Of a stretch of 64,000 nt of DNA, positions 4,199 through 37,321 are shown in pieces. The stretch's first letter is position 1; every line of letters starts with the position of its first letter. The notes below the pieces were generated by a model. It was given only the letters and a program-made list of their open reading frames with translations. It made no database searches and was not told the origin of the DNA. A program made the translations under genes and the position numbers. The stretch comes from Sphingobacteriales bacterium (GTDB taxonomy: Bacteria > Bacteroidota > Bacteroidia > Cytophagales > 172606-1). The DNA lies in the NCBI GenBank assembly GCA_031424975.1, contig JANPIL010000141.1:7293-71292 (forward strand), in the 5' to 3' direction.

Positions 4199-4247
4199 GG
4201 TTTGGTGTTTTGAAAAGATACCTGTCTGCCGACAGGCAGGCTATTTT
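4199..4247 (-). repeat. Motif A copy split by a 20-bp palindrome insertion
   Basis: GGTTTGGTGTTTTGAAAAGATA[4221-4240]CTATTTT. Confidence 0.9.
4221..4240 (+). mobile_element. 20-bp palindromic insertion element
   Basis: CCTGTCTGCCGACAGGCAGG inside the Motif A core. Confidence 0.8.
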
Positions 4248-4262
4248 ACGTTTCTTTCACGA

Positions 4263-5477
4263 TTACGTTTCCTTCACGGGTTGGGGGGCGGTCTGTTTTA
4301 CGGACAGCCGCATCCTAAAAACCAAGAAAGCGGAACGCAGCGCAAGTAACAACACTATCGGAATAAGTTCATAATCAATGCGTTGCGGTATAAATTGCCA
4401 ACTACCGAGCAGCAAAACCAAAAGCCCCAAATACGTGACAAAATAAATGCGGAGCCATGCGGGCTTGTGTTTGCGGAGCAGCCACAGCGCCACCGGAAAA
4501 TGCAGCGGCCACGCCCACCACAAATGCCAGTTTTGCACCGTTGCCCGGTGGTCGGTGCCAAACCACAAAAACGCCAGCAGCCAGCCCAGCAACCCAATCA
4601 CCGAAAAAAGGACGGCATCAAGCCAGAATTGCCGCCCCGTGCCGCGAAACTGCCAGATTGTGATCAGAACGCCAACGGCCAGCAGCAACCAGAACAAAAT
4701 CGTGGGCGTAAGCCCATCGGAAAGGGCAGGGCGCGGCACGGCTTGGAACAGCGTCTGGTGCGTGAGTTCAAATTTTTCGGGCTTGCCGTTGCGCATCACC
4801 GTGGCCGTAGCCGTCAGGTTCATCAGGTTGTCGGGCAAGAACATACTTTCATCAGACGAAGCTGGCTTATCGGCCGGTGAGGAAATGCCCAGGTCAATGC
4901 CAAAATCAGCGTAGTGATTATGTTGCAAATAGCGGTCAATCCACTGCCTGAAGGTCAGGCTGTCAGGGTTTTGGCCGAATTTCAGGCTGTCGCCGCACAC
5001 GGCTTGCAGGGCATCGCGCACGCGGGTGGTGCAATTGTCGTAGAAGTGGTCGTATTTGTAATACCGCTGGTCGGGTTGGTAATTGCGCTGCAAAAACGCG
5101 TACAGCTTGGTCACCTGCGCCGGGGAAAGGTTGAGTTGCTGGGCGGTAACGGTGCGGTTTTCGTACTGTGCGCCGTACACCATGTTCTCGATTTTGCCAA
5201 TTGCCAGCGCGTAAAGCAGTTTCCCACGGATGTATTTGATATAAAAATTGGATTCGTTGAAGTCGAACGTGCCATAATTGTACACTTCATTGAGACCCAA
5301 TTGCGGATCCTGGATCCAGAGGGCGGTATGGCCGAAAACGGAATAAAGTTCCTCGCCCGGCGCAACGGTGACCAACGTGGCGGTGGCTTGCGGCGATAGC
5401 GTAACCAATTGCGCCTGAGCGGGTTGCCAGCAAAAAATAAGTCCGGCGGAAAGAAACAGAAAAATGTTTTTGAGCAT
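4263..5477 (-). CDS. DUF4105 / Lnb-like membrane protein
   Basis: Signal peptide, PGEELYSVFGHTAL, YNYGTFDF, YDNCTTR, four C-terminal transmembrane segments. Confidence 0.75.
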   Translation of the reverse strand: MLKNIFLFLSAGLIFCWQPAQAQLVTLSPQATATLVTVAPGEELYSVFGHTALWIQDPQLGLNEVYNYGTFDFNESNFYIKYIRGKLLYALAIGKIENMVYGAQYENRTVTAQQLNLSPAQVTKLYAFLQRNYQPDQRYYKYDHFYDNCTTRVRDALQAVCGDSLKFGQNPDSLTFRQWIDRYLQHNHYADFGIDLGISSPADKPASSDESMFLPDNLMNLTATATVMRNGKPEKFELTHQTLFQAVPRPALSDGLTPTILFWLLLAVGVLITIWQFRGTGRQFWLDAVLFSVIGLLGWLLAFLWFGTDHRATVQNWHLWWAWPLHFPVALWLLRKHKPAWLRIYFVTYLGLLVLLLGSWQFIPQRIDYELIPIVLLLALRSAFLVFRMRLSVKQTAPQPVKET

Positions 5478-5499
5478 GGTGATAATTTAAAAGGAGTGG

Positions 5500-5533
5500 C
5501 CTCCCCTAAATCCCCTCCAGAGGAGGGGACTTT
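5500..5533 (+). repeat. REP-like palindrome, family CCTCCCC..GAGGGG
   Basis: CCTCCCCTAAATCCCCTCCAGAGGAGGGGACTTT; 32/34 identical to 8990-9023. Confidence 0.85.
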
Positions 5534-5543
5534 TAAACAGGTG

Positions 5544-5572
5544 GGTTTTGGCTTTTGAAAAGATACTATTTT
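5544..5572 (-). repeat. Motif A copy
   Basis: GGTTTTGGCTTTTGAAAAGATACTATTTT. Confidence 0.9.
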
Positions 5573-5668
5573 CTCTGCCCCGTTTCGCAGGGCGATACCC
5601 TGCGTTGATGGATATCGCCCTTTCAGGGCTGTTGGACTGCATTGGCCAGAGGCCGCCCGGGCCGCTTC

Positions 5669-8311
5669 TCATTCGTACATTTCCTTCAGTTTTCCGCTGG
5701 TTTCCTTGTCCCGGATATCCCGGAGCAATTCGGGCACGCCCTCCGACTCATCAAACATGGCCAGCGTCTGATAGGCATTCAATCGCACGTATTCATTTTT
5801 GGCGTTGCGCGCGGTATTTTCAAGGAAACCAATGCCTTTTTTCTGGATTTCGGCGGGCTGCCTGAGCAAATACGAACCGAACAATTGCGTAAATGGATAC
5901 AGGAAGTCAAGGCTGTTGCGTTTGGCTTTTTCCAAGAACCAATCCAACTGTTCGGTTCCGGCGGTTTCGGCGTAGTAGGCGGCAATGGTAAGCGTGATGT
6001 CGCTGCTGGCCGAGTTGCGGAAAGCCGCCAGTTGCCGTTCAGCATCAGCGGGTTGGGTGCTCAGATAGCCGAATAAGGCGATGGAAACCACGTAGTACGA
6101 CGAATCTTTCAACGCCTGCCGGAAAGCGGCTTGGTAATCCTTGTGTTTCCAGCCAATCATCTTGCTCACAGCCTCGGCACGTACGTACGATTTGGGGTCG
6201 GAAACGGCCATTTTTTCCACAACCGTCTCGTAATCAGACAGTTTTACCACCGGTATTTCGGGTAGGTTGCGTATGGCCATCTGCCGGATCACCCAAGAAG
6301 CATCGTGCAGGGCATCGGCGGCCAGCTTTTTTCTTGAAGGTGTGCCAAAATGTCCGGCGGCGGTTTGGGCATTTTCAGACATACTATTTTTGGCGGAGTC
6401 GGCGGGTGGCTTTTCACCGTTTTCATCAGCCACCACTTCAAACAGCTTGTTAAACGCTTCGTAACGAGCCAAGTACTTGTCCGAATGGTAGTATTGGTAA
6501 GTCAGTTCGGCCTCCGTTTTTTCGTGCGTCACCTTGCCGAGCAACTGGGTTTCGGCATCAAAAAGCACCAAATCGGGTTGGGTGGCCGTTGCAAATGCAA
6601 AGGTTTGGTCGGGTTGGTTGATTACAATATCGCGGACGGTTTTTGTGCCGCCCGCCCATATTTCCACTTGCAGCGGCAGGCGGCAGGTTTTGTCATCGCC
6701 GGATATACTATTTTGGGTCTGCACCCGCAATTGTACTTTTCCGTTGGCATAAGTGTGCGAGACTTTCAGTTCGGGATGGCCCGCCGACAGGAACCACTGG
6801 TCAAAAAACCACTGCAAGTCTTGGCCCGTCACCTCTTCAAAGGCCAGGCGCAAATCGTGGATTTCGGCCTTGTTGTACGCGTGTTTTTTCAGGTACGTGT
6901 TCAGCGACTTAAAAAACGCCTCATCGCCCACGTATTTGCGCAGCATGTGCAGCACGCAGCCGCCCTTCTGGTACGAATGCGCATCGAACATATCCTCCTT
7001 GTCGTTGTAGTAATAGCGAATCAGCGGCTCCTGCTTGGTTTGCGCCTCCGAAAAATACACTTCCTGATCCTGTTGCAGATGGTAGTCGGCTTCGGCGCGG
7101 CCCTGTTTGTGTTCAATCCACAAATACTCGGCGTAGGTGGCAAACGCCTCGTTGAGCGGCAGGTTAGACCATGATTCGCAGGTCACCAAATCGCCGAACC
7201 AATGGTGGAACATTTCGTGCGCAATCACATCGTCGTCGTTTTCATCGAGCAGTTGGTGGCGGTCTTTCTGCACCGATTCGCCAAACACCACCGCGCCGGT
7301 ATTTTCCATTGCGCCCGACACGTAATCGCGCACCACCACTTGGGCGTATTTGTCCCACGGGTACGGATAATCCAGAATTTTGGAGTAAAAGGACAGCATT
7401 TCGGGTGTCCGCCCAAAGATATTTTTGGCGTATTTCTCGTACGGTTTTTCAACCAAGTAGCTCAGTTCCATACCGTTCCACTTGTCGCGCACCACTGCAA
7501 ACTCGCCCACGGCCATCATGAACAAGTACGGCGCGTGCGGCTTGTCCTGCTTCCAATGGTCGGTGCGCGTGCCGTTGGCATTGGATTTGGACGAGATCAG
7601 CAACCCGTTGGAAAGCGTAGTGTATTGCTTGTCCACGGTGATGAAAATCTCCTGCGTGGTGCGTTCGTTGGGCGAGTCAATGGTGGGGAACCAGCACGAA
7701 GAAGCCTCGGTCTCGCCCTGCGTCCAGATTTGGCGCGGCTTGCCGGGTTCCCGGCCATCGGGATTGATGAAATACAGGCCCTTGTCTTCGGTAATGGCCG
7801 CACTGCCGCCTTTGGGCAGGTCGTTGGGCTTGGCCACATACCGTATTCGCACCGTGAATTTTTCGTGGCGGGTGTAGGGTTTGGGCAGTTTCAGGGATAC
7901 TATTTTCTGGTCGTACGTATAAGGCAACGTGGTTTTTTTGGCGGCGGCCACCAACTCAACCGACTGTATGTCAAACCCTTTGGCATTGAGTTGCAGCGAA
8001 TCCTGGGCGTAAAAATGCGGCTTCAGCGTCAGCGTTGCCGTGCCCAGCAGGTGCTGCCTGCCCCAATCAAAACTGACTTCCAGTTTGGTGTGCAGTAGGT
8101 CATGTTTGCGGGTGCGTTCGGGTTGGTAGGGCAGCGGCGCGGTGTCGGCCACAAGGGCAAGGGGCGGCGCGGCCAGCGTGTCGGTGGTGTTGCCGGGCAT
8201 TGCCACCGGCACGTTGGCCGTTGAAGTCTGCGCAATCTTGGGGCTTTTGCACGATTCCAGACTGCCCGCGAGCCACGCCAGACAAACAGCCAGCCATAGT
8301 TTTTTGCCCAT
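5669..8311 (-). CDS. M1 family aminopeptidase, lipoprotein, with HEAT-like C-terminus
   Basis: GAMEN and HEMFHHWFG..E motifs; lipobox-like LESC. Confidence 0.92.
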   Translation of the reverse strand: MGKKLWLAVCLAWLAGSLESCKSPKIAQTSTANVPVAMPGNTTDTLAAPPLALVADTAPLPYQPERTRKHDLLHTKLEVSFDWGRQHLLGTATLTLKPHFYAQDSLQLNAKGFDIQSVELVAAAKKTTLPYTYDQKIVSLKLPKPYTRHEKFTVRIRYVAKPNDLPKGGSAAITEDKGLYFINPDGREPGKPRQIWTQGETEASSCWFPTIDSPNERTTQEIFITVDKQYTTLSNGLLISSKSNANGTRTDHWKQDKPHAPYLFMMAVGEFAVVRDKWNGMELSYLVEKPYEKYAKNIFGRTPEMLSFYSKILDYPYPWDKYAQVVVRDYVSGAMENTGAVVFGESVQKDRHQLLDENDDDVIAHEMFHHWFGDLVTCESWSNLPLNEAFATYAEYLWIEHKQGRAEADYHLQQDQEVYFSEAQTKQEPLIRYYYNDKEDMFDAHSYQKGGCVLHMLRKYVGDEAFFKSLNTYLKKHAYNKAEIHDLRLAFEEVTGQDLQWFFDQWFLSAGHPELKVSHTYANGKVQLRVQTQNSISGDDKTCRLPLQVEIWAGGTKTVRDIVINQPDQTFAFATATQPDLVLFDAETQLLGKVTHEKTEAELTYQYYHSDKYLARYEAFNKLFEVVADENGEKPPADSAKNSMSENAQTAAGHFGTPSRKKLAADALHDASWVIRQMAIRNLPEIPVVKLSDYETVVEKMAVSDPKSYVRAEAVSKMIGWKHKDYQAAFRQALKDSSYYVVSIALFGYLSTQPADAERQLAAFRNSASSDITLTIAAYYAETAGTEQLDWFLEKAKRNSLDFLYPFTQLFGSYLLRQPAEIQKKGIGFLENTARNAKNEYVRLNAYQTLAMFDESEGVPELLRDIRDKETSGKLKEMYE
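6686..6714 (-). repeat. Motif A copy in aminopeptidase CDS (degenerate middle)
   Basis: GGTTTTGTCATCGCCGGATATACTATTTT; encodes QNSISGDDKT. Confidence 0.65.
7878..7906 (-). repeat. Motif A copy in aminopeptidase CDS
   Basis: GGTTTGGGCAGTTTCAGGGATACTATTTT; encodes KIVSLKLPKP. Confidence 0.85.
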
Positions 8312-8478
8312 TGGTTTTCTTTTGTTTACTTGGCGCAAAGAAACGGAAAAGTTGGGGGCGTTTCAAAACATTTTGCGTTTGGCGTTTTTCATTGTCCGCC
8401 ATTCCGCAAAGCCCCCGGACACGCCGGTTTATGTCCATGGCCCGAAGGCTGCGGAGAACATTTATTTTATCCAATGCC

Positions 8479-8976
8479 ATGCTCAAAATTACAGTTGCCG
8501 GACGGTATATTTTCAACTTGGATGAAAACGCCCACGCCGGCCATGATATTGCCGAAATCCGCGACGGAGTTTTCCATGTTTTGAAAGCTGGAAGTCCCGT
8601 CTTCAGCGGGAATACTGTTTCGTACAATGCCGAGGTGGTCAGGGCCGACTTTGCCCACAAGAGCTTCACCGTCAAGGTAAACGGCAAGTTGCTGGAAGTG
8701 AAAGCGCACGACAAGTTTGATTTGCTGCTGCAGCAACTCGGCTTGGGCCAAGCCAACGGCACGCAACCCAAAGACCTGAAAGCCCCCATGCCCGGCCTGA
8801 TTCTGGACATTAAAGTGACTGAAGGTCAAGCGGTGCTGAAAGGCGATGTGGTAGTCATACTGGAAGCTATGAAAATGGAAAACGCGATAAAAGCCCCCGC
8901 CGATGGCACTGTGAAGGCCGTGAAAGTGAAAACCGGCGACAATGTGGAGAAAAACCAAGTGCTGATTGTGTTTTAA
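8479..8976 (+). CDS. Biotin carboxyl carrier (biotin/lipoyl-domain) protein carrying an 8-codon repeat insertion
   Basis: KAPMPGLI and EAMKMEN biotinylation motif; insertion at 8588-8611. Confidence 0.9.
   Translation: MLKITVAGRYIFNLDENAHAGHDIAEIRDGVFHVLKAGSPVFSGNTVSYNAEVVRADFAHKSFTVKVNGKLLEVKAHDKFDLLLQQLGLGQANGTQPKDLKAPMPGLILDIKVTEGQAVLKGDVVVILEAMKMENAIKAPADGTVKAVKVKTGDNVEKNQVLIVF
8569..8621 (-). repeat. Degenerate Motif A copy in biotin-carrier CDS, split by a 24-bp insertion
   Basis: GTTTTCCATGTTTTGAAAG[8588-8611]ATACTGTTTC. Confidence 0.7.
8588..8611 (+). mobile_element. 24-bp hairpin insertion element, copy 2 (in frame within a CDS)
   Basis: CTGGAAGTCCCGTCTTCAGCGGGA; 20/24 identical to copy 1, same AAAG^ATAC junction. 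Confidence 0.8.
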
Positions 8977-8989
8977 AGGTCTCCAAAAG

Positions 8990-9023
8990 CCTCCCCTAAA
9001 TCCCCTCCGAAGGAGGGGACTTT
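8990..9023 (+). repeat. REP-like palindrome, family CCTCCCC..GAGGGG
   Basis: CCTCCCCTAAATCCCCTCCGAAGGAGGGGACTTT. Confidence 0.85.
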
Positions 9024-9054
9024 TAAAAGCCTCCCCTTGGGGCTGTTTTTTTCC

Positions 9055-9062
9055 TATCTTTG
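9055..9062 (+). promoter_or_regulatory. Bacteroidota -7 promoter element (pyrH)
   Basis: TATCTTTG matches TAnnTTTG, 28 bp before the GTG start. Confidence 0.65.
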
Positions 9063-9090
9063 CGCAAATTTCCAACAAATACATCTTACA

Positions 9091-9801
9091 GTGAAATACA
9101 AACGGATACTCCTCAAACTCAGTGGTGAATCGCTGGCCGGCAAACAAGGATACGGCATTGATTCCCAAAGGCTTACCGAATACGCAAAACAAATAAAGGA
9201 AGTCGTGGACGCGGGCGTGCAAGTGGCGATTGTGATTGGTGGCGGCAACATTTTCCGGGGTGCCGATGGCGAAAACTCGGGCATTGACCGCGTGCAAGGC
9301 GACTACATGGGAATGCTGGCAACGGTGATTAACGCCATGGCCTTGCAGAGCGGCCTGGAAAAAAGCGGCCTGTTCACCCGCCTCATGTCGGGCATCCGCA
9401 TTGACCAGGTGTGCGAGCCGTTCATCCGCCGCCGCGCCGTGCGCCACCTTGAAAAAGGCCGCACCGTGATTTTCGGGGCGGGCATCGGCAACCCGTATTT
9501 CACCACCGACACCACGGCCAGCCTGCGCGCCATCGAAATCGAGGCCGATGTGGTGCTCAAAGGCACCCGCGTGGACGGCGTGTACAGTGCCGACCCCGAA
9601 AAAGACCCCGATGCGGTGCGCTACGCCACCATCACGTTTGAGGAAGTATATGCCAAAGGGCTGAATATCATGGACATGACGGCCTTTACGCTGTGCAAGG
9701 AAAACAACCTGCCCATTATTATCTTCGACATGAACAAGCCCGGCAACCTGTATAACCTGGTGAAAGGCGAGGACGTGGGTACGCTGGTAACGATGGGTTG
9801 A
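9091..9801 (+). CDS. pyrH: Uridylate kinase
   Basis: [28 protein letters not shown]; GTG start 9091. Confidence 0.97.
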
Positions 9802-9874
9802 TTCTTGCGAGTCCACAGACCACGGTCGGCAGTCCACAGGTAAACCGTAGGAGCCGCCTAATTGACTGTTGGCG

Positions 9875-9903
9875 GGTTTGGGCTTTTTAAAGGATACTAT
9901 TTT
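9875..9903 (-). repeat. Motif A copy
   Basis: GGTTTGGGCTTTTTAAAGGATACTATTTT. Confidence 0.9.
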
Positions 9904-9976
9904 AGCCAACAGTTCACGTCCGACAGTCCACTGAAAAAAACAGATTGATACTGACAAACTACCGCCGCCGAGTTAG

Positions 9977-9997
9977 CCTGCCTGCCGGACAGGCAGG
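9977..9997 (+). repeat. Variant of the 20-bp palindrome
   Basis: CCTGCCTGCCGGACAGGCAGG. Confidence 0.7.
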
Positions 9998-10101
9998 GAA
10001 TCTCGGAACATGGGCGGCACGAGATGGGAATCTCGCGCCAGCGGGAACCGCCTGATTTTTCAATACCCACCACATTGGTGGTTTAAACGCAAAACAATCT
10101 T

Positions 10102-10662
10102 ATGGAGGAAATACAATTTTATCTGGACGAGGGCAGGGAAGACATGGAAAAATCCCTGAGGCACACGTCAAGCGAACTTGCCCGGATCAGGGCGGGGCGG
10201 GCCACGGTACACATGGTAGACGGGCTGATGGTTGAATACTACGGCTCGCCCACGCCACTGAGCCAGATGGCTTCGGTTACCGTGCCCGACTCGCGGACGC
10301 TGGCTATCAAGCCCTTTGAAAAGAAAATGGTGGGCGAAGTGGAAAAAGCCATTCGCAACAGCGACTTAGGCGTAATGCCCCAGAACGACGGCGAGACGGT
10401 GCGCATCAGCATTCCGCCGCTCAGCGAGGAACGCCGCCGCGAACTGGTGAAACGCGCCAAAAACGAGGTGGAAAGCGGCAAGGTCAGCATCCGCACTGTG
10501 CGCAAGGAAACCAACGAAGCCCTGCGCAAATTGCTGAAAGAAGGCGCATCGGAAGACGATGTGAAACGCGCCGAGGAGAAAGTACAAGCCCTGACCGACC
10601 AGTACATTGCCAAAGCCGATGAGATGGCGGGTAAGAAGGAAACTGAGATAATGACGATTTGA
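10102..10662 (+). CDS. frr: Ribosome recycling factor
   Basis: IRAGRA, IPPLSEERRRELVK. Confidence 0.97.
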   Translation: MEEIQFYLDEGREDMEKSLRHTSSELARIRAGRATVHMVDGLMVEYYGSPTPLSQMASVTVPDSRTLAIKPFEKKMVGEVEKAIRNSDLGVMPQNDGETVRISIPPLSEERRRELVKRAKNEVESGKVSIRTVRKETNEALRKLLKEGASEDDVKRAEEKVQALTDQYIAKADEMAGKKETEIMTI

Positions 10663-10712
10663 TTTTCCGGCAGTTATTCGCCATTTGAAACCCGGCTATG
10701 GCAAGATAGACG

Positions 10713-10741
10713 GGTTTCGTATTTTGAAAGGATACTATTCT
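10713..10741 (-). repeat. Motif A copy
   Basis: GGTTTCGTATTTTGAAAGGATACTATTCT. Confidence 0.85.
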
Positions 10742-10788
10742 TGCAGGAAGTACGCAGATTGCTTGGTTGGCACTTAATTGCCAATTAC

Positions 10789-10970
10789 GCACAACGGACA
10801 GGGCTTGGCGAAGTGTGGGAAATAGAATTCCGTCCGCCCGCGGCTATCTGAAACCAAATTTACAAATAGAAGCTAATTATTTGCACATGGCTAAATTAAT
10901 AACTTCCTGCTGGATATGAAGCCAAATTGAAAAACAAAAAGTTGAAACACAGCTTCCGTCAGTCCACCAA
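10789..10970 (-). other. Truncated attC-like site (array 1)
   Basis: Begins GCACAAC and shares GGGCTT..GTGTGG..AATAGAATT..GTC..GCCCG and CTTCCGTCA with the 11644 and 12520 sites; the second arm is missing; right limit approximate. Confidence 0.5.
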
Positions 10971-11121
10971 GAAAAACTTATGATTTCTTTTGCTTTTAAG
11001 CATTCTACTATTTCTACTGTATGATGTTGACTATGGTGAATAGTATTTATATAAAATTCTAATCCTGAACTGTCTGGCCGTAGTGTCCGCTACGACCAGA
11101 CCCAGCCGAGTAACTGTAGTG

Positions 11122-11307
11122 TTATACCTTTCGGTATAACGTACCAATGACAAGTAAAATAAAGCCAATTAGTAACATTTCATAGTTATACTTTGACAAT
11201 ACATCTATGTGCGTGTAATGTCCCAAAATGCCTAAAAAGCCGACGATGAGGGCAAGAACCCAGACTATTTGGTTGGGTGCACTGGGCATAAATTTTTTGT
11301 TTGCCAT
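11122..11307 (-). CDS. Small two-transmembrane membrane protein
   Basis: 61 aa with two hydrophobic segments; AT-rich. Confidence 0.6.
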   Translation of the reverse strand: MANKKFMPSAPNQIVWVLALIVGFLGILGHYTHIDVLSKYNYEMLLIGFILLVIGTLYRKV

Positions 11308-11511
11308 GGTTATTTGATTTAATTAAGGTTAAATTATTCTTTATATGAACCGTTTATTGAGTAACAATGACTCCCTTCAAAAGTAGGTCTATTTGAATTC
11401 TCAATCAAGGTAGATTTGTTCCAAACTTTGAGTTAACCAAATTTCTTCTATGGAGCTGCTATACACTGATAATCAACAGATTGTGTATTTTTCCAATAAA
11501 GCCGAACCCAG

Positions 11512-11540
11512 AAAACAGTATCTTTTCAAAACGCAAAATC
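11512..11540 (+). repeat. Motif A copy
   Basis: AAAACAGTATCTTTTCAAAACGCAAAATC. Confidence 0.75.
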
Positions 11541-11643
11541 CCTTTTTGTCAAAACAAACAGAGAACGTGCATTGCACGGATGAGAATGCAGTTTAAACAA
11601 GTTTTTAACTAACTGATTATCAACCGATAACAACTCTAAGGAC

Positions 11644-12716: not shown

Positions 12717-12725
12717 GCCGTATTT

Positions 12726-29372: not shown

Positions 29373-29383
29373 ACTCACCATAC

Positions 29384-29728: not shown

Positions 29729-29757
29729 AAAACAGTATCTTTTGGAAAGCTCAAACC
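29729..29757 (+). repeat. Motif A copy
   Basis: AAAACAGTATCTTTTGGAAAGCTCAAACC. Confidence 0.85.
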
Positions 29758-29986
29758 CCGGTGCATTTCAATATACAAGAGAGCCAACGGGAACTGTTTG
29801 TATCAGTGCTTGTACAAGGCCCGGCTCGATGCCTGTTTGGGGCGTTTGCAATGAGCGGGGTCGCTGGCGGCGCACGAAAAAAGGCCGGTCAGGCATAAGG
29901 TGAGCAGTATCCATTTCATGGTTTCGGTGTGTTGTCCGTGCGAATTGCGGTGGTTTGTCTTTAACGGTAAGCGGTTTGCAAATCGT

Positions 29987-30640
29987 TCATCCGGGCTGCC
30001 ATGATTCAGGATTCTGCCGCCAAGCCGCCAACGAAACCCGGTCGGTTTCGGAGATGATGTTGCGGCGGGTAGCTTCAGTGAGCAGGTGCGCGTAATCGCT
30101 CAGGCAAACCAATGGCATTTGCCTTGCCGCAAAATTGCGTTCGGCTTCGGCAAAGCCATACGTGAAAATGGCCGCCATGCCCAGCACTTCGGCCCCGGCT
30201 TGGCGCAACGCATCCACGGCTTTCAGCGAACTGCCGCCCGTGGAAACCAGATCTTCGATGACCACCACTTTTTGTCCGGCGGATAATTCGCCTTCAATCG
30301 CGTTGCCCATGCCGTGTTCCTTGGGTTTGGCACGCACATACACAAACGGCAACGCCAGCGCGTCGGCCACCAAGGCACCCTGCGGAATGCCCGCCGTGGC
30401 AACACCCGCAATGGCTCCCACGCCGGGGAAAGCCTCGCGGATGCGGGCGGCCAGCGCGTCTTTGATGAACGTGCGGATGCCGGGATAGGACAAAGCCAGC
30501 CGGTTGTCGCAGTAAATCGGCGATTTCCAGCCCGAACTCCACGTGAATGGCTCGCCGGGCCGCAACCGGATGGCTCCGATGTCGAGCAGGGCCGAGGCTA
30601 CGCGTTGGGCCACGGCATCATGGTCAATGGATGGTATCAT
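29987..30640 (-). CDS. pyrE: Orotate phosphoribosyltransferase
   Basis: SGWKSPIYCDNR, VVVIEDLVSTGGS PRPP motif. Confidence 0.95.
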   Translation of the reverse strand: MIPSIDHDAVAQRVASALLDIGAIRLRPGEPFTWSSGWKSPIYCDNRLALSYPGIRTFIKDALAARIREAFPGVGAIAGVATAGIPQGALVADALALPFVYVRAKPKEHGMGNAIEGELSAGQKVVVIEDLVSTGGSSLKAVDALRQAGAEVLGMAAIFTYGFAEAERNFAARQMPLVCLSDYAHLLTEATRRNIISETDRVSLAAWRQNPESWQPG

Positions 30641-30706
30641 GCGGCTAAAATAGCGGGTAATGCGCAGCCAAAAAAGCATCTTTTACTGGTTGCGCCCGAT
30701 TTACCG

Positions 30707-30735
30707 AAAATAGTATGTTTCCGAAAACCCAAACC
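30707..30735 (+). repeat. Motif A copy
   Basis: AAAATAGTATGTTTCCGAAAACCCAAACC. Confidence 0.9.
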
Positions 30736-30891
30736 CCCTACCCTTCTCCCCTTGAAATCAAAACCGGGTGGAACGGGTTCTTCGGGCGGCGGCCAACCGC
30801 TACCGGCTTTTGTGTTGCGTTATTGTCAGAAATGCGTTTCTTTTGTATCAGTATCGCGTCTTGTCTCCCCACCTTGTGTTTTCCATCCCAC

Positions 30892-31623
30892 ATGAATCTT
30901 TTCATCAACGACAAGCACGTGAAAGTCGTGAAAATGGAGGCCTTCACGGCGCAACAGTCCAAATTCAGCCGCATCATTGACGGGCAGACCGTGGAAGTGG
31001 CCGCCACCGACCTGGAGGGCGATGTGGCGGTGACCAACCCCTCGGTGGTGCTGCTCTATCGGTTGTTTGCCTTACTGCGCGACAAGAAACTGAGGAAACT
31101 CAGCTCGCTCACGCTGGCCTCGCCAGACAAGCAGATACTGACCGAGGCAATCAAGGCTCCGTACCGGATTATTGAGGCGGCAGGCGGCGTGGTACGCAAA
31201 GACAACCGAATACTGATGATTTACCGGCTGGGTGCTTGGGACTTGCCGAAAGGAAAAATGGAGAAGGACGAGACATTTCGCGAAACCGCCGTGCGCGAAG
31301 TGGAGGAAGAATGCCGCGTGAAGGTGCAACTGCACGAAAAAATCTGCACCACTTGGCACACCTACACCCAAAATGGCAGCGGAATCCTGAAGCAGACCAA
31401 ATGGTACGCCATGACCTGCCTCGACGACAGTGCCATGGCTCCGCAACGCGAAGAGGGCATTGAACGCGTGGAGTGGATCAGCGAGGAAAAAACCTTGGAA
31501 CTGACCGCCACTTCGTATCCTTCCATCCGGTTTGTGTGCCACAAGTATTTTAACAGGAAGCAGTCTGGCGACCCGGAAACGGGCTACGGGCTGGTTTCGG
31601 CTTTGAAAAAGATACTATTTTGA
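30892..31623 (+). CDS. NUDIX hydrolase
   Basis: PKGKMEKDETFRETAVREVEEE NUDIX box; the C-terminal tail reads through Motif A. Confidence 0.88.
   Translation: MNLFINDKHVKVVKMEAFTAQQSKFSRIIDGQTVEVAATDLEGDVAVTNPSVVLLYRLFALLRDKKLRKLSSLTLASPDKQILTEAIKAPYRIIEAAGGVVRKDNRILMIYRLGAWDLPKGKMEKDETFRETAVREVEEECRVKVQLHEKICTTWHTYTQNGSGILKQTKWYAMTCLDDSAMAPQREEGIERVEWISEEKTLELTATSYPSIRFVCHKYFNRKQSGDPETGYGLVSALKKILF
31593..31621 (-). repeat. Motif A copy encoding the NUDIX C-terminus
   Basis: GGTTTCGGCTTTGAAAAAGATACTATTTT; encodes LVSALKKILF*. Confidence 0.88.
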
Positions 31624-31738
31624 AAGGCGGGGACGGAACGGCAGAACAACGCTTCTGCGTCGCCCGCAAGTTGTTTGCGTGAGAATAGGAGTTGAAAGTA
31701 AATGGGTTCAGTGTTTTCCAACCAAAAATTGTACGGCT

Positions 31739-32317
31739 ATGGCAGTTGAAATGGTAACGGGTGTCTCGCTGGAGGAATACTGCCGGTTGGAATACGACGC
31801 GAAAACAAAACACGAGTACATTAACGGTGAAATCATCCCCATGCCCTACACCTCCGAAAACCACGGCCTGATTGCTTCCAATATGGCTGTTGCCATTGGA
31901 ATCTGCCTCAAAGGTAGCAAAAACCACCGCCTCTACATTGCCGACCGGATGCTGTATGTGCCTACCGATGCCAATGAGGGCAACACGTACTACCCCGACC
32001 TGATGATTGTGGAAGGCGAACCGGTTTTCAAGGCCATCAGTGCCAATATGCAGGCTACCACCAACCCGGCGGTGGTGATTGAAATACTGTCGGGCAGCAA
32101 CGCCGACAACGACTTGGTTGAAAAACTGACGCACTACAAAACGATACCCACGCTGAAACAATACCTGATTTTCTGGCAGACCAAAAGGCAGGTAGAAACT
32201 TTTACGCGCATCAATGAAAAGGAATGGCTCGATGTGGTGCTGACCGAAAAGGAAGGCGCGGTGCGGATATTGGATTGTGAACTCTCATTCGGCGACATCT
32301 ACGAAAAGGTATTCTGA
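31739..32317 (+). CDS. Uma2 family endonuclease
   Basis: KHEYINGEI..YYPDLMIV..PAVVIEILS..IPTLKQY. Confidence 0.88.
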   Translation: MAVEMVTGVSLEEYCRLEYDAKTKHEYINGEIIPMPYTSENHGLIASNMAVAIGICLKGSKNHRLYIADRMLYVPTDANEGNTYYPDLMIVEGEPVFKAISANMQATTNPAVVIEILSGSNADNDLVEKLTHYKTIPTLKQYLIFWQTKRQVETFTRINEKEWLDVVLTEKEGAVRILDCELSFGDIYEKVF

Positions 32318-32326
32318 CACAACCCG

Positions 32327-32785
32327 ATGAAATCAATCGCAAATACCGACGGCAGGGATGAGATTTTGGGCAGGATTGCCCGCCTGACGCACGAATCCAA
32401 GGGTTTGTGGGGCAAAATGAACGTGAACCAGATGGTTTGCCACTGCGCCGACCAAGTGAGAATCTGCATCGGCACGAAACCGGCCCGACAAAAAGGCAAT
32501 TTCCTGACGCGGACGCTAATCAAGTTTGCGGCGTTGAACTTGCCCATTGCCATGCCCAAAAACATGAGGACAATCTACGAACTGGATCCCGGAAAAGCCG
32601 GCATGACCCAGCCCTCGGGTTTTCGGGAAGACCGTGACGAACTCGTGGGTTTGATCGGCCACTTTTTTTCGCTGCCCGGCGGCCAGCGTTTCAGCCATCC
32701 GGTTTTTGGCGGCCTCAGCAAACGCGAATTGGGTAAACTCACCTACCTCCATTTAAACCACCACCTGCAACAATTCGGGGTGTAA
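32327..32785 (+). CDS. DUF1569 / DinB-like protein
   Basis: WGKMNVNQMVCHC..HPVFG..HLNHHLQQFGV. Confidence 0.85.
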   Translation: MKSIANTDGRDEILGRIARLTHESKGLWGKMNVNQMVCHCADQVRICIGTKPARQKGNFLTRTLIKFAALNLPIAMPKNMRTIYELDPGKAGMTQPSGFREDRDELVGLIGHFFSLPGGQRFSHPVFGGLSKRELGKLTYLHLNHHLQQFGV

Positions 32786-32799
32786 CAAAACAATATCTC

Positions 32800-32828
32800 A
32801 AAATAGTATCTTTCGGAAAGCCCAAACC
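32800..32828 (+). repeat. Motif A copy
   Basis: AAAATAGTATCTTTCGGAAAGCCCAAACC. Confidence 0.92.
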
Positions 32829-32866
32829 CAACCCTTGCAACAGCCGTGCTTTCCACAACCCTGTTG

Positions 32867-33067
32867 TTACGGGTTTTGTCCCAGTTTTTGCAGCCGCACT
32901 TCCGCCTCCGACAAATACGCCCGGCACTGGCTGATGTGCCGCGTGGCCTCCTCAAAAAGCGTGAGTGAATCATCAAACGGCTGGTTGCCGTCTTGCAGCA
33001 ACCCTTGTATTTCGCGGATGCGGTTCAGGGCGGTTTCTAAGTGGAAATCGGTTGAGGGTGTTTTCAT
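32867..33067 (-). CDS. xseB: Exodeoxyribonuclease VII small subunit
   Basis: LETALNRIREI..SLTLFEEA..C..L..AE; start at ATG 33067, upstream ORF extension is repeat-derived. Confidence 0.8.
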   Translation of the reverse strand: MKTPSTDFHLETALNRIREIQGLLQDGNQPFDDSLTLFEEATRHISQCRAYLSEAEVRLQKLGQNP

Positions 33068-33146
33068 GGCTTTGTATCTGTCTGTTCGCAATCTGTGGAC
33101 TATGGTTTTTACCGGCTTTTGCAAGACATTTCCGGAAACAGGTGCA

Positions 33147-33175
33147 GGTTTGGCATTTTTGAAAGATACTATTTC
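33147..33175 (-). repeat. Motif A copy
   Basis: GGTTTGGCATTTTTGAAAGATACTATTTC. Confidence 0.9.
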
Positions 33176-33284
33176 CCAAACCGGGTTCAACAATAACTCA
33201 CCGATGCTTTTGCCTGAAGCAAAGGCATCGGTGAGTTATAGCATGCATGCAAGGGCGCAATCGTTTTCACCGGGAAAGGGCGTG

Positions 33285-33818
33285 TTATTTTTTCACGAGT
33301 TCCAGTGTGCTCACCAGGCTCACCTTTTCGCCCAGCGCCGCTGCCGGATAGTTTTTTCCGATATCGAAAGCCATGCGTTCGATAAGCGCCGTCGCATTGA
33401 ACACCGCAATCGTGCTTTTATACACGGGATGCTCAAATTCGCCCTCGTAAGTGGCCTCAAGGACAATAGGCTTTTCAATGCCATTTACGGAGAGATTTCC
33501 TTTGATTGTATACTCTTTGCCTCCTACTTTTTCAATCGAACTGCTTTGGAAACGGATTTCAGGATGAGTGGCAACATCAAAAAAGTCCGGTGTTTTCAAA
33601 TGCCCGTCCCGGTTCGCGTCATTCGTATCGATTGAATCAGCCTTGATGACAATTTCCAAACTCCCATCCGAAAAATCATCCTCGGCATAGGTAAAGCTGC
33701 CGGCAAAATCCTTGAAGCTGCCTTTCACCTTTGCAATCATAAAATGTGAAATCGTAAAAGACAAATTTGTGTGGGCTTTGTCGATTTCCCAATGGGTTTT
33801 TTTGATCTGATCAACCAT
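33285..33818 (-). CDS. YceI family protein
   Basis: WEIDKAHT..RDGHLKTPDFFDV..HPEIRF. Confidence 0.92.
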   Translation of the reverse strand: MVDQIKKTHWEIDKAHTNLSFTISHFMIAKVKGSFKDFAGSFTYAEDDFSDGSLEIVIKADSIDTNDANRDGHLKTPDFFDVATHPEIRFQSSSIEKVGGKEYTIKGNLSVNGIEKPIVLEATYEGEFEHPVYKSTIAVFNATALIERMAFDIGKNYPAAALGEKVSLVSTLELVKK

Positions 33819-33906
33819 GTCGTGAGCGGATTACATTGTCTGTCAATATTGACATCACAAAGTTCACGCAAACACATTTATTGAACCATGGACAAAACTC
33901 CGCCAA

Positions 33907-34779
33907 TCAGGCACTTTTGGGATTTTCCTTTTGAAAGCCACTCGGGCTTGTGCCGGTATGTCTTGTGAAAAAACGGCTGAAATATGATGCGTCTTCGAAG
34001 CCCAAGCGGTCGGCTATTTCTTTTATGCTGTGTTCGCTGTAGAACAGCAGCCGTTTGGCTTCCACAACTATCCGTCCATGGATAGTCTGGATGGCGGTTT
34101 CGCCGGTGGCGCTTCTCACCATTTCATTCAGGTGTTTCGCCGTAAGGAATAGTTTGTCGGCGTAAAATGACACATCATGGTTTTTGTTGTAGTGTTCTTC
34201 GATGAGCCAAACGAAGTCGAAAAATGTTTTCTTGTGCTGGCTTTCCGCCAACATTGATTTCTCCAGTTCCTTACGCCCGCTCCTTAAAACGCCCGCAAGC
34301 ATTATTTTCAATGCCGACCGTATGGTTTCAAAATCGGGCCGCTCAAGTTTCAATTCCCCGTTGATGATGCTAATGCAGGCAAAAAAATTATTTTCGTCCT
34401 GGCTGTCCAGCCGTATGTCAGGCATCTGGTTGCTCAGGAACGCGAACCGGATCAGGAAAGCCGCATCCGGCGTTTCCCTGTAGACAAACTCCTTTTCGAA
34501 GATGATGACAACTCCCCGCTCAATGTTTCCCCTGTCAAAATTGTGCACTTGTCCGGGACTGATACAGAAAAGCGTGGGTGCTGCAATCCGGTAATCCACA
34601 AAGTCAACCTGATGGGTACCCGTGCCCTTTTCAATGAACACCAACTCATAGAATGAATGCCTGTGATTTGAATATTCCTTGTGCACTTGGTTATAAACCT
34701 CGATACTCAATACCCTGAAAGGAATGGGTTTTTCCGCAGTCGGCTTTATCTGATGCGTAACTAGGTTTTTGTTGCCCAC
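33907..34779 (-). CDS. AraC family transcriptional regulator
   Basis: HRHSFYE..GQVH cupin and EIADRLGFEDASYFSRFF HTH; start uncertain (GTG 34779 chosen). Confidence 0.88.
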   Translation of the reverse strand: MGNKNLVTHQIKPTAEKPIPFRVLSIEVYNQVHKEYSNHRHSFYELVFIEKGTGTHQVDFVDYRIAAPTLFCISPGQVHNFDRGNIERGVVIIFEKEFVYRETPDAAFLIRFAFLSNQMPDIRLDSQDENNFFACISIINGELKLERPDFETIRSALKIMLAGVLRSGRKELEKSMLAESQHKKTFFDFVWLIEEHYNKNHDVSFYADKLFLTAKHLNEMVRSATGETAIQTIHGRIVVEAKRLLFYSEHSIKEIADRLGFEDASYFSRFFTRHTGTSPSGFQKENPKSA

Positions 34780-34813
34780 ATTTTTACAGGGTTTGTGAAC
34801 CCGGAATCGCGCG

Positions 34814-34842
34814 GGTTCGGCCTTTACGAAAGATACTATTTC
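34814..34842 (-). repeat. Motif A copy
   Basis: GGTTCGGCCTTTACGAAAGATACTATTTC. Confidence 0.85.
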
Positions 34843-34847
34843 CCCGC

Positions 34848-36518
34848 TTACACCGCGTATTTCCTGCGCCGCCAGTAGGTACGCGCCACGCCGAAAACCA
34901 CAATCACCGCCACGGGCAGCAGCAGGTTGGTGAGCTGCCATTGCAGGCGCTGGTCGCGGAGTTTCTGCTTGTCGAGTGGGCGCAGCACGATTTCCTTGCT
35001 GCGGGCGGCAATCACGCCGTTTTCGTCAATCAGGTAATCCACGGCGTGCAGCACGAAATCCTTGTTGGCAAATGTCACGTTCATGAACTTATCAAAGCCG
35101 AGCGGCGCAAACTTGCCCGTTTGCGGGTCTATCTCGTTGGCGGGCAGGTCGCCATCCGAACAAACCACGATTTTGGAAGGCTGCCCGTAATCCCTGAAAG
35201 TCTTGGCACGCGGGTCGGCGGCGGTGATGCGGTTGGCGTACAACGACCGGAAACTGCCTTCCAGCAGATAGGCCACCGGCTGCGAACCGGCATTGAACTG
35301 CTGCGGATCGGGGTCGCGGCGGGCTTCGTTGAAATCTATTTTGGCCGGGGCCGCCGTCACTTTCGAGTAGCGCGAAGTGAACATGAGCGGCGTTTTGCGG
35401 ATGCCATTGGCGCGCACGGTATCCATTGTACCCGCGTAATGCGCATACACCGCGTCGAGGTTGCGCACAATCGGGTGCTTGGAAAACGTGTTGATAAGCG
35501 GGTAAAACCGCCACGGCATGAGTTGTATTTGCGGCTGCTCGCCAAATTTGCCCACGTTCATCGGGATCTGCCCGCTGTTCATGTCTTGGATCACGTTGCG
35601 GTTCAGCCGCACGCCGTACCGGAACAGCAAATCGTCGAGGTTCAGGTCGTTTTCAATGGCCAGCGTGCTTTCGCCGCGCATGATTGTGTCCGATTTCAGC
35701 GCGTCCACGAAAAACAACGCCCGCCCACCGCTGACAATGAACTGGTCGAGCTTGTATTTGTCGGTCTCCGAGAATGCCGAATCGGGCTTGGCAACGATAA
35801 TCGCATCTAAGCCTTGCAGCGACTGTTGGGTGCGTAAGTTGAATGTGTAAACCTCGTAATACGCTTGCAGTGAATTGATCAGGTCGGCCATTTGCACGGG
35901 GCGCAGATTGCCGTAGCCTTGCAGAATGCCAATGCGTTTTTTCTCTTTCAACGTGAGCCGCCGGATGGCCGAAGCCAGTTCATATTCCACATTTTCAACC
36001 GACTGGTTCAGAATCTGTTCCGAACCCACGCCTTTGGTGCGCTGGTTGCCGCGCAGCAGCATCACCGGCACTTCGCGGCCTTCGTAGCTGACAATGGCTC
36101 CGGGCACCACAATCCGCTCCACGGTTTTGCCCTCTTCCTTATCCACCAAATTGGTCGGGTTAATTCCCTTTTTGGCGAGTTCAAAGAGTTTTTCGTTGAG
36201 TTTTTTCTTGTCAGGCTCGGCGGTCACGTCTTCAAAACGGTAGCGCACGTTGCCTCCGGCGTAGGCTTTGAATTCCTCCAGCTTTTCCTGCACCGCCGTT
36301 TGCAGCCGCCGGAACGCGGGCGGCAACTGGCCTTGCAAATACACGGTAACCAACACCGGCGCATCGAGTTTTTCGAGCAGCCGTTCGGTGGCTGGCGCAA
36401 TGGTATAACGCTGGTCTTCAGTCAGATCGGCGCGAAAAAAAAACCGGTTGGCCAGCACATTCAGCAGTACAACCGCCGCGATTCCGATGGCGAACTGGAG
36501 GAGGTTTTTTCTTTTCAT
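34848..36518 (-). CDS. gldG: Gliding-motility ABC transporter substrate-binding protein
   Basis: DLTEDQRYT, LDQFIVSGG, DLLFRYG, NKDF..VDYL. Confidence 0.9.
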   Translation of the reverse strand: MKRKNLLQFAIGIAAVVLLNVLANRFFFRADLTEDQRYTIAPATERLLEKLDAPVLVTVYLQGQLPPAFRRLQTAVQEKLEEFKAYAGGNVRYRFEDVTAEPDKKKLNEKLFELAKKGINPTNLVDKEEGKTVERIVVPGAIVSYEGREVPVMLLRGNQRTKGVGSEQILNQSVENVEYELASAIRRLTLKEKKRIGILQGYGNLRPVQMADLINSLQAYYEVYTFNLRTQQSLQGLDAIIVAKPDSAFSETDKYKLDQFIVSGGRALFFVDALKSDTIMRGESTLAIENDLNLDDLLFRYGVRLNRNVIQDMNSGQIPMNVGKFGEQPQIQLMPWRFYPLINTFSKHPIVRNLDAVYAHYAGTMDTVRANGIRKTPLMFTSRYSKVTAAPAKIDFNEARRDPDPQQFNAGSQPVAYLLEGSFRSLYANRITAADPRAKTFRDYGQPSKIVVCSDGDLPANEIDPQTGKFAPLGFDKFMNVTFANKDFVLHAVDYLIDENGVIAARSKEIVLRPLDKQKLRDQRLQWQLTNLLLPVAVIVVFGVARTYWRRRKYAV

Positions 36519-36545
36519 TGATTCAGGAATAAAAGGGCAATGTCA

Positions 36546-36574
36546 GGTTTGGGCTTTTGGAAAGATACTATTTT
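36546..36574 (-). repeat. Motif A copy
   Basis: GGTTTGGGCTTTTGGAAAGATACTATTTT. Confidence 0.92.
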
Positions 36575-36695
36575 GCAAAGGTGTAAGCGAAAATGCCCAC
36601 ACCGGGTGCGTGTTTCCTGTTTGTGTTGGAAAATGGGAAGTTTCAAAAATCAAAAACCTGCGGTTTTTTGCACAAGCTGAAGCGTGTGCTACCGC

Positions 36696-37160
36696 TTACC
36701 TCATCCGGTCGGCGGAGCGGACCAGTTTTTCATCGCGGCGGATGAAACGGTTGGCGAGGATGTTGAAAGTCAGGGCCGCCATGGGCAGGTAGGTTCCGAT
36801 TTTGAATACGCCCTCGTTGTTGGGGATAACCGTTTCGGCCTCGCGCGAAAAATAAATGATCAGGCCCAGCACACCCGCCATCACCAAGGCATTCATGGCT
36901 CCCAGACCCGTTTGTGCCGTGCGGTTTTTGTACTGCGACAAGGAATAAGCGGCTATTGCGGCGGCCACCAGTGCCAGTGCGGCAATGTACCACACGTTGC
37001 GGCTGCTCACCTCGGCTCCGGCCTGCACAACCGTCATCTTCATGGCCGACAGTTCCACACGTTTGCCATTTGCTGCTTCCTCCCAGTTTCCCACAAAAGC
37101 GGTGGTGGCCATGCAAGCCGCAATGAGCAGCAAAAATACGGATTGGATACGCTGAATCAT
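36696..37160 (-). CDS. DUF4293 family membrane protein
   Basis: MIQRIQSVFL..IRRDEKLVRSADRMR. Confidence 0.9.
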   Translation of the reverse strand: MIQRIQSVFLLLIAACMATTAFVGNWEEAANGKRVELSAMKMTVVQAGAEVSSRNVWYIAALALVAAAIAAYSLSQYKNRTAQTGLGAMNALVMAGVLGLIIYFSREAETVIPNNEGVFKIGTYLPMAALTFNILANRFIRRDEKLVRSADRMR

Positions 37161-37203
37161 GTTAGTTGGATAAATGGTTGGTTGTCAATTGCCTGTTGCG
37201 GCG

Positions 37204-37211
37204 CAAAGTTA
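37204..37211 (-). promoter_or_regulatory. Bacteroidota -7 promoter element (DUF4293 gene)
   Basis: TAACTTTG on the - strand. Confidence 0.6.
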
Positions 37212-37243
37212 AAGTTAAAATGAATCGGTTGTTGGCCTCCGGG

Positions 37244-37266
37244 GGTTTAGCGTTTTGAAAGGATAC
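37244..37266 (-). repeat. Motif A copy truncated at its core by a REP-like element
   Basis: GGTTTAGCGTTTTGAAAGGATAC followed directly by GGCCTCCCC.. Confidence 0.75.
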
Positions 37267-37321
37267 GGCCTCCCCCCTGTCTGCCGACAGGCAGGCAACC
37301 CCCTCCGAAAGAGGGGGCTTT
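37267..37321 (+). repeat. REP-like palindrome, interrupted by the 20-bp element
   Basis: GGCCTCCCC[20 bp]CAACCCCCTCCGAAAGAGGGGGCTTT. Confidence 0.8.
37276..37295 (+). mobile_element. 20-bp palindromic insertion element
   Basis: Identical CCTGTCTGCCGACAGGCAGG inside a REP-like element; uninterrupted comparator at 38583-38617. Confidence 0.8.

Follow-up and report, generated by a model that had tools for sequence, protein, structure and literature searches.

A 20-nt palindrome inserted cleanly into other repeats, with a hotspot in the Motif A core of a Cytophagales genome

We investigated a 20-nt palindromic hairpin, H20 (CCTGTCTGCCGACAGGCAGG), and its 21-nt sibling, H21 (CCTGCCTGTCCGGCAGGCAGG), starting from a 64-kb stretch of DNA (hereafter the window; positions 7293-71292 of contig C141) in a 4.6-Mb, 515-contig assembly (genome G000). 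The host is an uncultured, soil-type member of Cytophagales near Rhodocytophaga, with an RpoA 90% identical to that of 'Cytophagaceae bacterium DM2B3-1'. H20 and H21 are almost certainly mobile mini-elements. They are discrete units with turnover in both of two sister lineages, and they are letter-identical across many phyla and phage contigs. In the host they fall mainly into other repeats, above all into the core of a 30-bp repeat, Motif A, and this hotspot is probably explained by a short target preference of the element's own.

Filled and empty sites in sister species

The window holds two copies of H20, at 4221-4240 and 37276-37295 (both on the + strand and both exact), as a first-pass annotation of this DNA had reported; no further match with up to three mismatches was found in the window, where shuffled sequences predict 0. 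The first copy lies inside the core of a Motif A copy (4198-4247, + strand; split-motif census score 45.9), which it splits at column 23/24 into columns 1-23 (4198-4220) and columns 24-30 (4241-4247); the junction reads GATA^CTATTTT, with an ambiguity of one C. The second copy splits an element resembling a repetitive extragenic palindrome (REP), namely GGCCTCCCC^CAACCCCCTCCGAAAGAGGGGGCTTT (37267-37321, + strand), at GGCCTCCCC^CAACCCCCTCC, and the junction is the same in all filled copies genome-wide. The empty form of this REP-like element, which the first-pass annotation had also pointed out, is present at 38583-38617 on the - strand, with its junction between 38608 and 38609. A C stands directly 3' of both H20 copies.

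Both loci were compared with G003, a congener that is ~91% identical to G000 over the two (assembly 88% complete). Both sites are empty in G003, an exact 20-bp gap being the sole structural difference in each alignment, and the Motif A copy at 4198-4247 is uninterrupted there. Neither a target duplication nor the loss of a flanking base was seen at the two window sites against G003, in agreement with the clean insertion proposed from the sequence of the window. For both indels, the intergenic DNA of the outgroups G001 and G004 is too diverged to polarize gain versus loss.

The comparison also took in 20 of the 22 H21 sites of G003, ~14 of which could be resolved against G000: G000 is filled like G003 at four of them, empty at nine, and occupied by a different insert at one. 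Because shared, empty, and alternative sites all occur, copies must have been gained or lost in both lineages since the split. One orthologous Motif A copy (contig C373 in G000, locus L169 in G003) holds H21 in G003 and a 48-nt compound hairpin in G000 at the identical junction, which reflects either independent hits or replacement at one site.

A hairpin family lodged in other repeats

Genome-wide, we counted 62 exact copies of H20 plus 26 with one to three mismatches, 86 exact copies of H21, and two further variants, CCTGTCCGTCCGGCAGGCGGG (11 copies) and CCTGTCCGCCGACAGGCGGG (six copies). All of these depart slightly from the perfect palindrome CCTGCCTGCCGGCAGGCAGG, from which H20 and H21 probably both derive. 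As single strands they form hairpins with 8-bp stems (-5.5 to -8.9 kcal/mol). The two alternative folds suggested for H20 are borne out; one has an 8-bp stem that includes a T.G pair (-5.5 kcal/mol), the other a stem of 6 bp.

At least 95% of H20 and H21 copies lie inside other repeats, at a fixed junction, with one or two junctions per repeat family. H21 is found in Motif A (70 of 86 copies), in REP loops (14 copies; ..GAGATTC^CTATCTC..), and elsewhere (two copies). H20 is found in Motif A (17 copies), in the REP-like element (31), in a fourth repeat (six; ^CGGTCTGACAC), in a tRNA (one), and in a few other places. With 70 of 86 H21 copies in a repeat that makes up ~2% of the genome, inserts are strongly enriched inside repeats relative to outside, a contrast that the first-pass annotation had proposed to examine. 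The REP-like element exists genome-wide as 159 empty and 30 H20-filled copies, the junction never varying. The hairpins also nest. Three H21 copies hold an 18-nt element in their loop, two copies of the 18-nt element hold an H21 variant in theirs, and in a metagenome-assembled genome (MAG) of Actinomycetota one H20 lies within another. The inserts split tRNA copies, REPs, and sometimes coding sequence.

Several simple accounts of these inserts were considered and rejected. An origin from rRNA or another universal RNA is contradicted by the repeat contexts of all 88 near-matches in the genome. Insertion into hairpin loops holds for nested copies, for REPs of the REP-associated tyrosine transposase (RAYT) type, for tRNA D- and T-loops, and for many foreign loci; as a general rule it fails, Motif A itself folding negligibly (-0.7 kcal/mol). 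A 19-nt unit that duplicates a single C would explain the GATA^C and CCCC^C sites but not the TATC^TTTC (column-19) class. Judged as miniature inverted-repeat transposable elements, the hairpins lack the combination of terminal inverted repeats and target-site duplication, being exact 20-bp indels without duplication.

Motif A and the hotspot in its core

Motif A (GGGTTTGGGCTTTTTGAAAGATACTATTTT) has the invariant core AAAGATACTATTTT. A position matrix built from exact-core copies returned ~3,430 intact copies in the genome, 35 of them in the window, and 0 in the reversed genome used as control. The 14-nt core is present in 841, 838, and 1044 copies in three congeners and in 30-78 copies in three others; outside the genus it drops to 0-2 per genome, not above the reversed control. 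It is abundant in G004, a congener without a Y1 transposase hit. Of all Motif A copies, 68% lie outside long open reading frames (ORFs), and the gene on the downstream side is more frequently convergent (1270 cases) than co-directional (794). A promoter role was therefore rejected, given genus specificity, a range of 30 to 1044 copies among congeners, and no orientation bias toward the downstream gene. Motif A behaves as a lineage-specific REP-like repeat.

Interrupted copies were sought by taking every split of the 30 columns, with prefix and suffix 6-200 nt apart. This census returned 122 Motif A copies with inserts of 10-60 nt, 113 of which (93%) have their junction at 18-24 of 30 (AAA^G^A^T^A^C^T), with peaks at junction 19 (56 copies) and junctions 23/24 (30 copies). 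The distribution is far from uniform and has the sharp peak that the first-pass annotation had predicted for a genome-wide map. At least five hairpin families target this stretch. H20 and H21 account for 67 copies in the census, a 24-33-nt family ending in GCGGG for 20 (junctions 18-20), and the 18-nt TATTTATGCGCCGTGGCG for 12 (junctions 21-23); nested compound hairpins are also among the core inserts, and junction 26 holds a 93-nt element and an apparent 14-nt stump of it. The earlier claim that different elements interrupt the core thus stands: several unrelated small elements strike the same 6-7 nt, the AAAG^ site being that of the 24-nt hairpin family.

At the TACTA^TTTT junction of Motif A, an identical 93-nt element (AAGGTGATTACGAT...GGCCACGT) was seen three times, at C159:7764 (+), C160:12241 (+), and C206:20181 (-). 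The 14-nt GAGGTTATTACGAT occupies the same junction three times (contigs C382, C495, and C507) and looks like a stump or solo end of the 93-nt element.

Insertion rules and probable target preference

Hairpin orientation is coupled to position in Motif A. The T-in-loop form (CCTGCCTGTCCGG.., for H20 CCTGTCTGCCGA..) lies on the forward strand of Motif A at 23/24 and on the reverse strand at 19, by 69 to 1 for H21, and H20 obeys the same rule. Copies of the column-19 class have G at column 20 in 44 of 44 cases (0.73 of intact copies) and A at columns 17-19 in 93-95% (71-79% of intact copies), and in the 23/24 class A is depleted at columns 16-19. The local preference is AAA^G or ATA^C. Most target families of G000 have WWC^ at the end of the left flank when read on the T-form strand.

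The variable columns of filled Motif A copies stay diverse (pairwise identity 0.63, compared with 0.55 for intact copies). Because of this diversity, and because orthologous pairs consist of a filled and an empty copy, the insertions are independent hits on pre-existing, differing Motif A copies. Spread of a composite unit of Motif A plus hairpin was rejected on the same grounds, filled flanks being as diverse as intact ones. The pattern shows a local sequence requirement of few bases, and neither proliferation of a composite unit nor long-tract conversion.

We then built a cross-phylum logo from 146 distinct foreign H20 flanks. Directly after H20 stands C in 60% of them and T in 21%; A is found at position -3 in 49%, and T at position -1 in only 7%. 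The C that follows both window copies, which had been noticed at the outset, therefore generalizes. The resulting consensus, A-N-A^C, is weak as a logo and is what GATA^C presents in the Motif A core. No association of hairpin orientation with GC skew or gene strand was observed (odds ratio ~1.0, n = 102), both being weak proxies in a fragmented assembly.

Identical hairpins in other bacteria and in phages

Exact H20 occurs in at least 120 loci of GTDB representative genomes, in many phyla and with unrelated flanks, where chance predicts ~1 in 596 Gb. The carriers include isolates (Flavobacterium, Winogradskyella, Galbibacter, Gelidibacter, and, with one copy, the cyanobacterium Sphaerospermopsis NIES-73) and MAGs of Saccharibacteria, Nitrospirota, Planctomycetota, Actinomycetota, Bacillota, and others. 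H20 is also present in 23 IMG/VR viral stretches. None of the 120 fetched H20 loci of other genomes contains Motif A. Of 401 evenly sampled Bacteroidota genomes, 94, belonging to 61 of 179 genera, contain the pattern CCTGYCTG-N4-5-CAGGCAGG, with a reversed control near 0. The same three exact hairpin forms recur among Bacteroidota, and G000 is the richest genome. Several H20 copies in other assemblies lie at contig ends.

GIY-YIG genes and tRNA genes beside H20

A cassette 6 kb upstream of the window, on the same contig, consists of an intact tRNA-Arg(CCG) (C141 741-813), an 81-aa GIY-YIG ORF (C141 ~820-1065; PF01541, 1.7e-16, Pfam match 868-1065), and a spare, full copy of tRNA-Arg(CCG) (C141 1080-1172) split by H20 in its D-loop (GGATA^GAAT). 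This H20 lies ~67 nt from the GIY-YIG gene, just outside the window. The 81-aa ORF comprises the GIY-YIG catalytic domain only; the nearest structures are those of UPF0213 (1ywl and 1zg2), and SLX1 matches weakly. A by-hand alignment of the D-loop site (GATA^GAATTT) with the Motif A site (GATA^CTATTT) gives 8 matches in the 10 positions around the junction.

The arrangement recurs. In eight foreign loci, comprising tRNA-Leu and tRNA-Arg sites in Flavobacteriia and others and one viral contig, H20 lies 17-75 nt from a GIY-YIG start, and the C141 protein is 52% identical to the one at another tRNA-Arg site. In a gene enrichment over 143 foreign H20 loci, only GIY-YIG and tRNA-neighbor genes recurred. 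In seven of nine families, genomes with hairpins have higher PF01541 counts than genomes without them (hand tally), and a single carrier of a canonical hairpin has no more than UvrC.

Other arrangements with GIY-YIG genes were also seen. In a Flavobacterium MAG (locus L074, 3400-4600), a GIY-YIG ORF comes after five tandem 116-bp units, each a 5' half of tRNA-Arg whose D-loop holds H20; the cassette seems to duplicate its tRNA landing pad repeatedly. At C442:5560-6150, a 97-aa GIY-YIG ORF lies between ~60-nt perfect inverted repeats (CCCGTCATTGCGAGGAACGCAGCGGAGCGGAGTGACGAAGCAACCCC...), and foreign H20 copies are often found in the loops of ..CTCGCAATGAC hairpins similar to these repeats. At C426:2990-3520, tRNA-Pro(GGG) is accompanied by an 80-aa GIY-YIG ORF and tRNA-like pieces in which the anticodon arm is replaced by TCCCGCCGGTRGCGGGA; the tRNA-Pro and the ORF are conserved in the sister species (G003 C146, locus L183).

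Further features of the window

Columns 1-24 of another Motif A copy, ending in GATAC, lie at 37243-37266 (+ strand) and abut the REP-like element that holds the second H20, the right end of the motif being missing. The first-pass annotation had taken this for a third element interrupting Motif A at 37266. Motif A does end after GATAC there, but the case is a single abutment or truncation, shared with G003, rather than a proven insertion. A CTATTTG lies downstream, 122 nt past the abutment; since G003 reads CGATTTG at that place, its likeness to a Motif A right end is probably due to chance. H21 stands on the - strand at 9977-9997 (CCTGCCTGTCCGGCAGGCAGG on that strand), in the loop of a RAYT-type REP (..GAGATTC^CTA[AT]CTC..). 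Two members of the GCGGG-ending family are present on the + strand: the 24-nt hairpin GCTGAAAGCCCCGTCTTTAGCGGG at 3171-3195, inserted at AAA^G/G^A of a Motif A copy with a boundary ambiguous by 1 nt, and a second hairpin at 8588-8611 in a degenerate Motif A copy. No Rfam family reached its gathering score anywhere in the 64 kb, although a ribosomal-protein superoperon, where leader motifs might be expected, is present. Elsewhere in the genome, at 5600-6410 on the - strand of contig C17, a RAYT gene lies in a textbook REPIN layout.

Candidate mechanisms

A cross-phylum, non-autonomous palindrome of 20-21 nt, inserted in trans at a short preferred target, is the reading that we mildly favor when the enzyme is left aside. 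A trans-acting nuclease or strand transferase would cut the target and join the hairpin in; the target would be A-N-A^C across phyla and, in G000, ATA^C or AAA^G on the other strand, and the hairpins would be copied precisely into new sites without target duplication. Motif A would then owe the hotspot to its invariant core AAAGATACTATTTT, which offers this target ~3,400 times, rather than to being a nick site in its own right. The core appears to resemble the tRNA-Arg D-loop site GGATA^GAATTT, where H20 adjoins the nuclease gene. The likeliest mobilizer would be the minimal, catalytic-domain-only GIY-YIG protein (UPF0213/SLX1-like) of the tRNA-lodged cassettes, which we put forward as the leading candidate for the driver but hold only tentatively, at less than even confidence. 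The fullest version of this idea is speculative: CCTGCCTG-N4-5-CAGGCAGG would be a pan-bacterial, phage-borne mobile element moved by the tRNA-side GIY-YIG protein, with specificity coming from DNA structure or from the hairpin, and would have burst to ~170 copies in G000 by way of a repeat that mimics the D-loop.

Several observations weigh against parts of this account. The link to GIY-YIG genes is one of association, many genomes have small GIY-YIG genes and none of these hairpins, and the GIY-YIG proteins that adjoin identical H20 copies are only 32-72% identical to one another, no closer than to the protein of a cassette with another hairpin; no co-variation of nuclease and hairpin was seen. 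The C141-type cassette was not found in G003 or G001, both of which hold H20, and G003 is without the whole region. A-N-A^C is too short to account for the specificity alone, and two target families, REP-like CCCC^CAAC and ..TTC^CGGTCTGAC, fall outside the AT-rich rule. Because orientation is tied to position in Motif A, a strand-specific mechanism fits better than a simple double-strand cut, and the hairpin at the tRNA-Arg D-loop is oriented oppositely in two genomes.

In a rival mechanism, built on the HUH proposal of the first-pass annotation, an HUH Y1 transposase (TnpA of the IS200/IS605 type, or RAYT) moves the hairpins as single-stranded DNA and the Motif A core is its nick or ssDNA-exposed site. 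A hairpin element inserted without target duplication beside a short motif, with WWC^ to the left on the T-form strand and an orientation strictly coupled to the Motif A strand used, would fit such an enzyme, whose elements insert 3' of a fixed tetra- or pentanucleotide; across phyla, only the weak A-N-A^C logo is seen. G000 has seven PF01797 hits (three IS200-type and four RAYT-type genes), hairpin-rich G000 and G003 both have the domain and G004, with one H21, has none, and PF01797 is present in ~87% of hairpin-bearing Bacteroidota versus 68% (hand tally). Yet no PF01797 hit at E <= 1e-5 was found in hairpin-rich G037 (36 strand-hits) and G312 (16), nor in G388, G085, and G188, and Motif A is abundant in G004, which lacks the domain. 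The RAYT gene on C17 (NF047646, 100 bits) is flanked by different inverted REPs (..CCGAGATTCCTATCTCGG..), one with H21 as a passenger and the other empty, and the hairpins beside the IS200-type genes are different ones. The whole unit of 20-21 nt is a single hairpin with an 8-bp stem and lacks the separate hairpins that IS200/IS605 elements have at their left and right ends; this, letter-identity across phyla where REPs are species-specific, and, as far as the weak strand proxies above tell, the lack of an orientation bias relative to replication (lagging-strand template) also speak against it, as does the occurrence of the same 20-mer elsewhere without Motif A. We consider the HUH mechanism quite unlikely, and the idea that the core is special through such an enzyme or a Motif A-specific nick found no support.

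Homing-like gene conversion, in which one founder hairpin per repeat family spreads through flanking-repeat homology during recombinational repair (possibly after nuclease cutting) and fixed junctions are founder accidents, would account for the location of at least 95% of copies in repeats at one or two junctions per family and for an occupancy that scales with repeat abundance. The clustering of G000/G003 substitutions within 10 nt of both window insertions and the greater uniformity of the column-19 class beside the junction point the same way. On one side, however, the flanking homology extends over just 7-11 nt, the variable columns of filled copies remain diverse, with differences as close as 3 nt to the junction (CATA vs GATA), the two junctions and the orientation rule are common to H20 and H21, which use them independently, and the same hairpin lies in unrelated, unique flanks in other phyla, so that we regard conversion as unlikely. 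A third possibility, that the hairpins are host-selected signals (terminators, RNA-stability elements, or protein-binding sites) or assembly or library artifacts, is highly improbable. They are stable GC hairpins (-5.5 to -8.9 kcal/mol) and mostly intergenic, and part of their sequence, GTCGGCAG, is by eye what we take to be a match to a common tagmentation adapter. But letter-identical copies with unrelated flanks come from many phyla, from isolates, MAGs, and phage contigs, and from many laboratories, and filled sites are common to two independent assemblies, on which grounds an adapter or assembly artifact was rejected. Fixed junctions inside repeats, the split spare tRNA, and the lack of both a T-run after the hairpin and an Rfam match also speak against this third possibility.

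If the speculative version with the GIY-YIG protein is right, the palindrome family would be smaller than any mobile element with a known mechanism, and the insertions in this genome would map the target sites of a kind of transposition or homing not yet described. H20 looks like one of the smallest mobile DNA elements known. The genome amounts to a natural experiment on target specificity and makes transposition of a 20-nt hairpin directly testable, with defined substrates (the Motif A core, the tRNA-Arg D-arm, H20, and H21) and few candidate enzymes in G000 (three small GIY-YIG, three IS200-type, and four RAYT-type proteins). There is a practical side as well: such inserts break assemblies, and the genome here is in 515 contigs.

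Comparison with known systems

Searches of the literature for the literal hairpin sequences found no paper, and concept searches gave mitochondrial analogs only. The small dispersed repeats SDR4-6 of heterocyst-forming cyanobacteria are reportedly hairpin repeats of 21-27 nt that form discrete insertions; they are said to lie often inside other repeats, to nest, to lack a transposase of their own, and to be confined to one cyanobacterial group. H20 and H21 resemble them in description as tiny nested hairpins within repeats, and differ in being letter-identical across phyla and phages and in having a recurrent GIY-YIG neighbor at tRNA genes. IS200/IS605 elements and palindrome-associated transposable elements, moved by HUH Y1 enzymes, insert beside a short sequence without target duplication in a hairpin-dependent and strand-specific manner. 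They depend on a resident TnpA and on two distinct hairpins, one at the left and one at the right end, which together with the rest take up ~80 nt or more, whereas H20 is a single 20-nt hairpin for which no replication-strand signal was seen with weak proxies.

REPs and REPINs are short, GC-rich, non-coding palindromes of extragenic DNA that number in the hundreds and are believed to move in trans; they are species-specific, usually form inverted doublets, and flank their own RAYT gene (PMC3116915). H20 and H21 are likewise short, GC-rich, non-coding palindromes, but they are single, cross-phylum, and also present in genomes without a Y1 transposase hit, and at the C17 RAYT H21 is an insert in another, flanking REP. 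GC clusters of yeast mitochondria such as GC42 (PMC4478555) and repetitive hairpin elements of sponges (PMC2800124) are very small palindromes rich in GC; they proliferate, pass between species, and give rise to new elements by merging or nesting. They are organellar, 30-40 nt or longer, and some have putative target duplications (PMC4478555, PMC2800124). Our hairpins share with the mitochondrial GC clusters small size, GC-richness, proliferation, and nesting, and differ in residing in bacterial and phage DNA, in their length of 20-21 nt, and in the lack of a duplication. Insertion sequences aimed at REP hairpins, IS1397 among them, are described (PMC1525189, cited in PMC3116915), and SegB of phage T4 is a free-standing GIY-YIG homing endonuclease in a tRNA cluster that promotes its own inheritance (PMC2330249). 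The H20 system is similar to these in the targeting of palindromic repeats and in a GIY-YIG gene lodged among tRNA genes; unlike these full genes or insertion sequences with DNA-binding domains, it has a 20-nt mobile hairpin and an 81-aa nuclease with the catalytic domain only. We found no publication of a tRNA-lodged minimal GIY-YIG cassette with a palindrome.

The nearest described things are thus the cyanobacterial SDRs, the REP/RAYT systems, and the mitochondrial GC clusters. Small mobile palindromes are known from cyanobacteria and mitochondria, with REPs as relatives, and none has a worked-out mechanism. Three features of H20 and H21 are unusual in this company: the same 20 letters across phyla and phages, a recurrent candidate for a partner gene, and ~150 recent insertions into one 30-bp target with empty sister sites.

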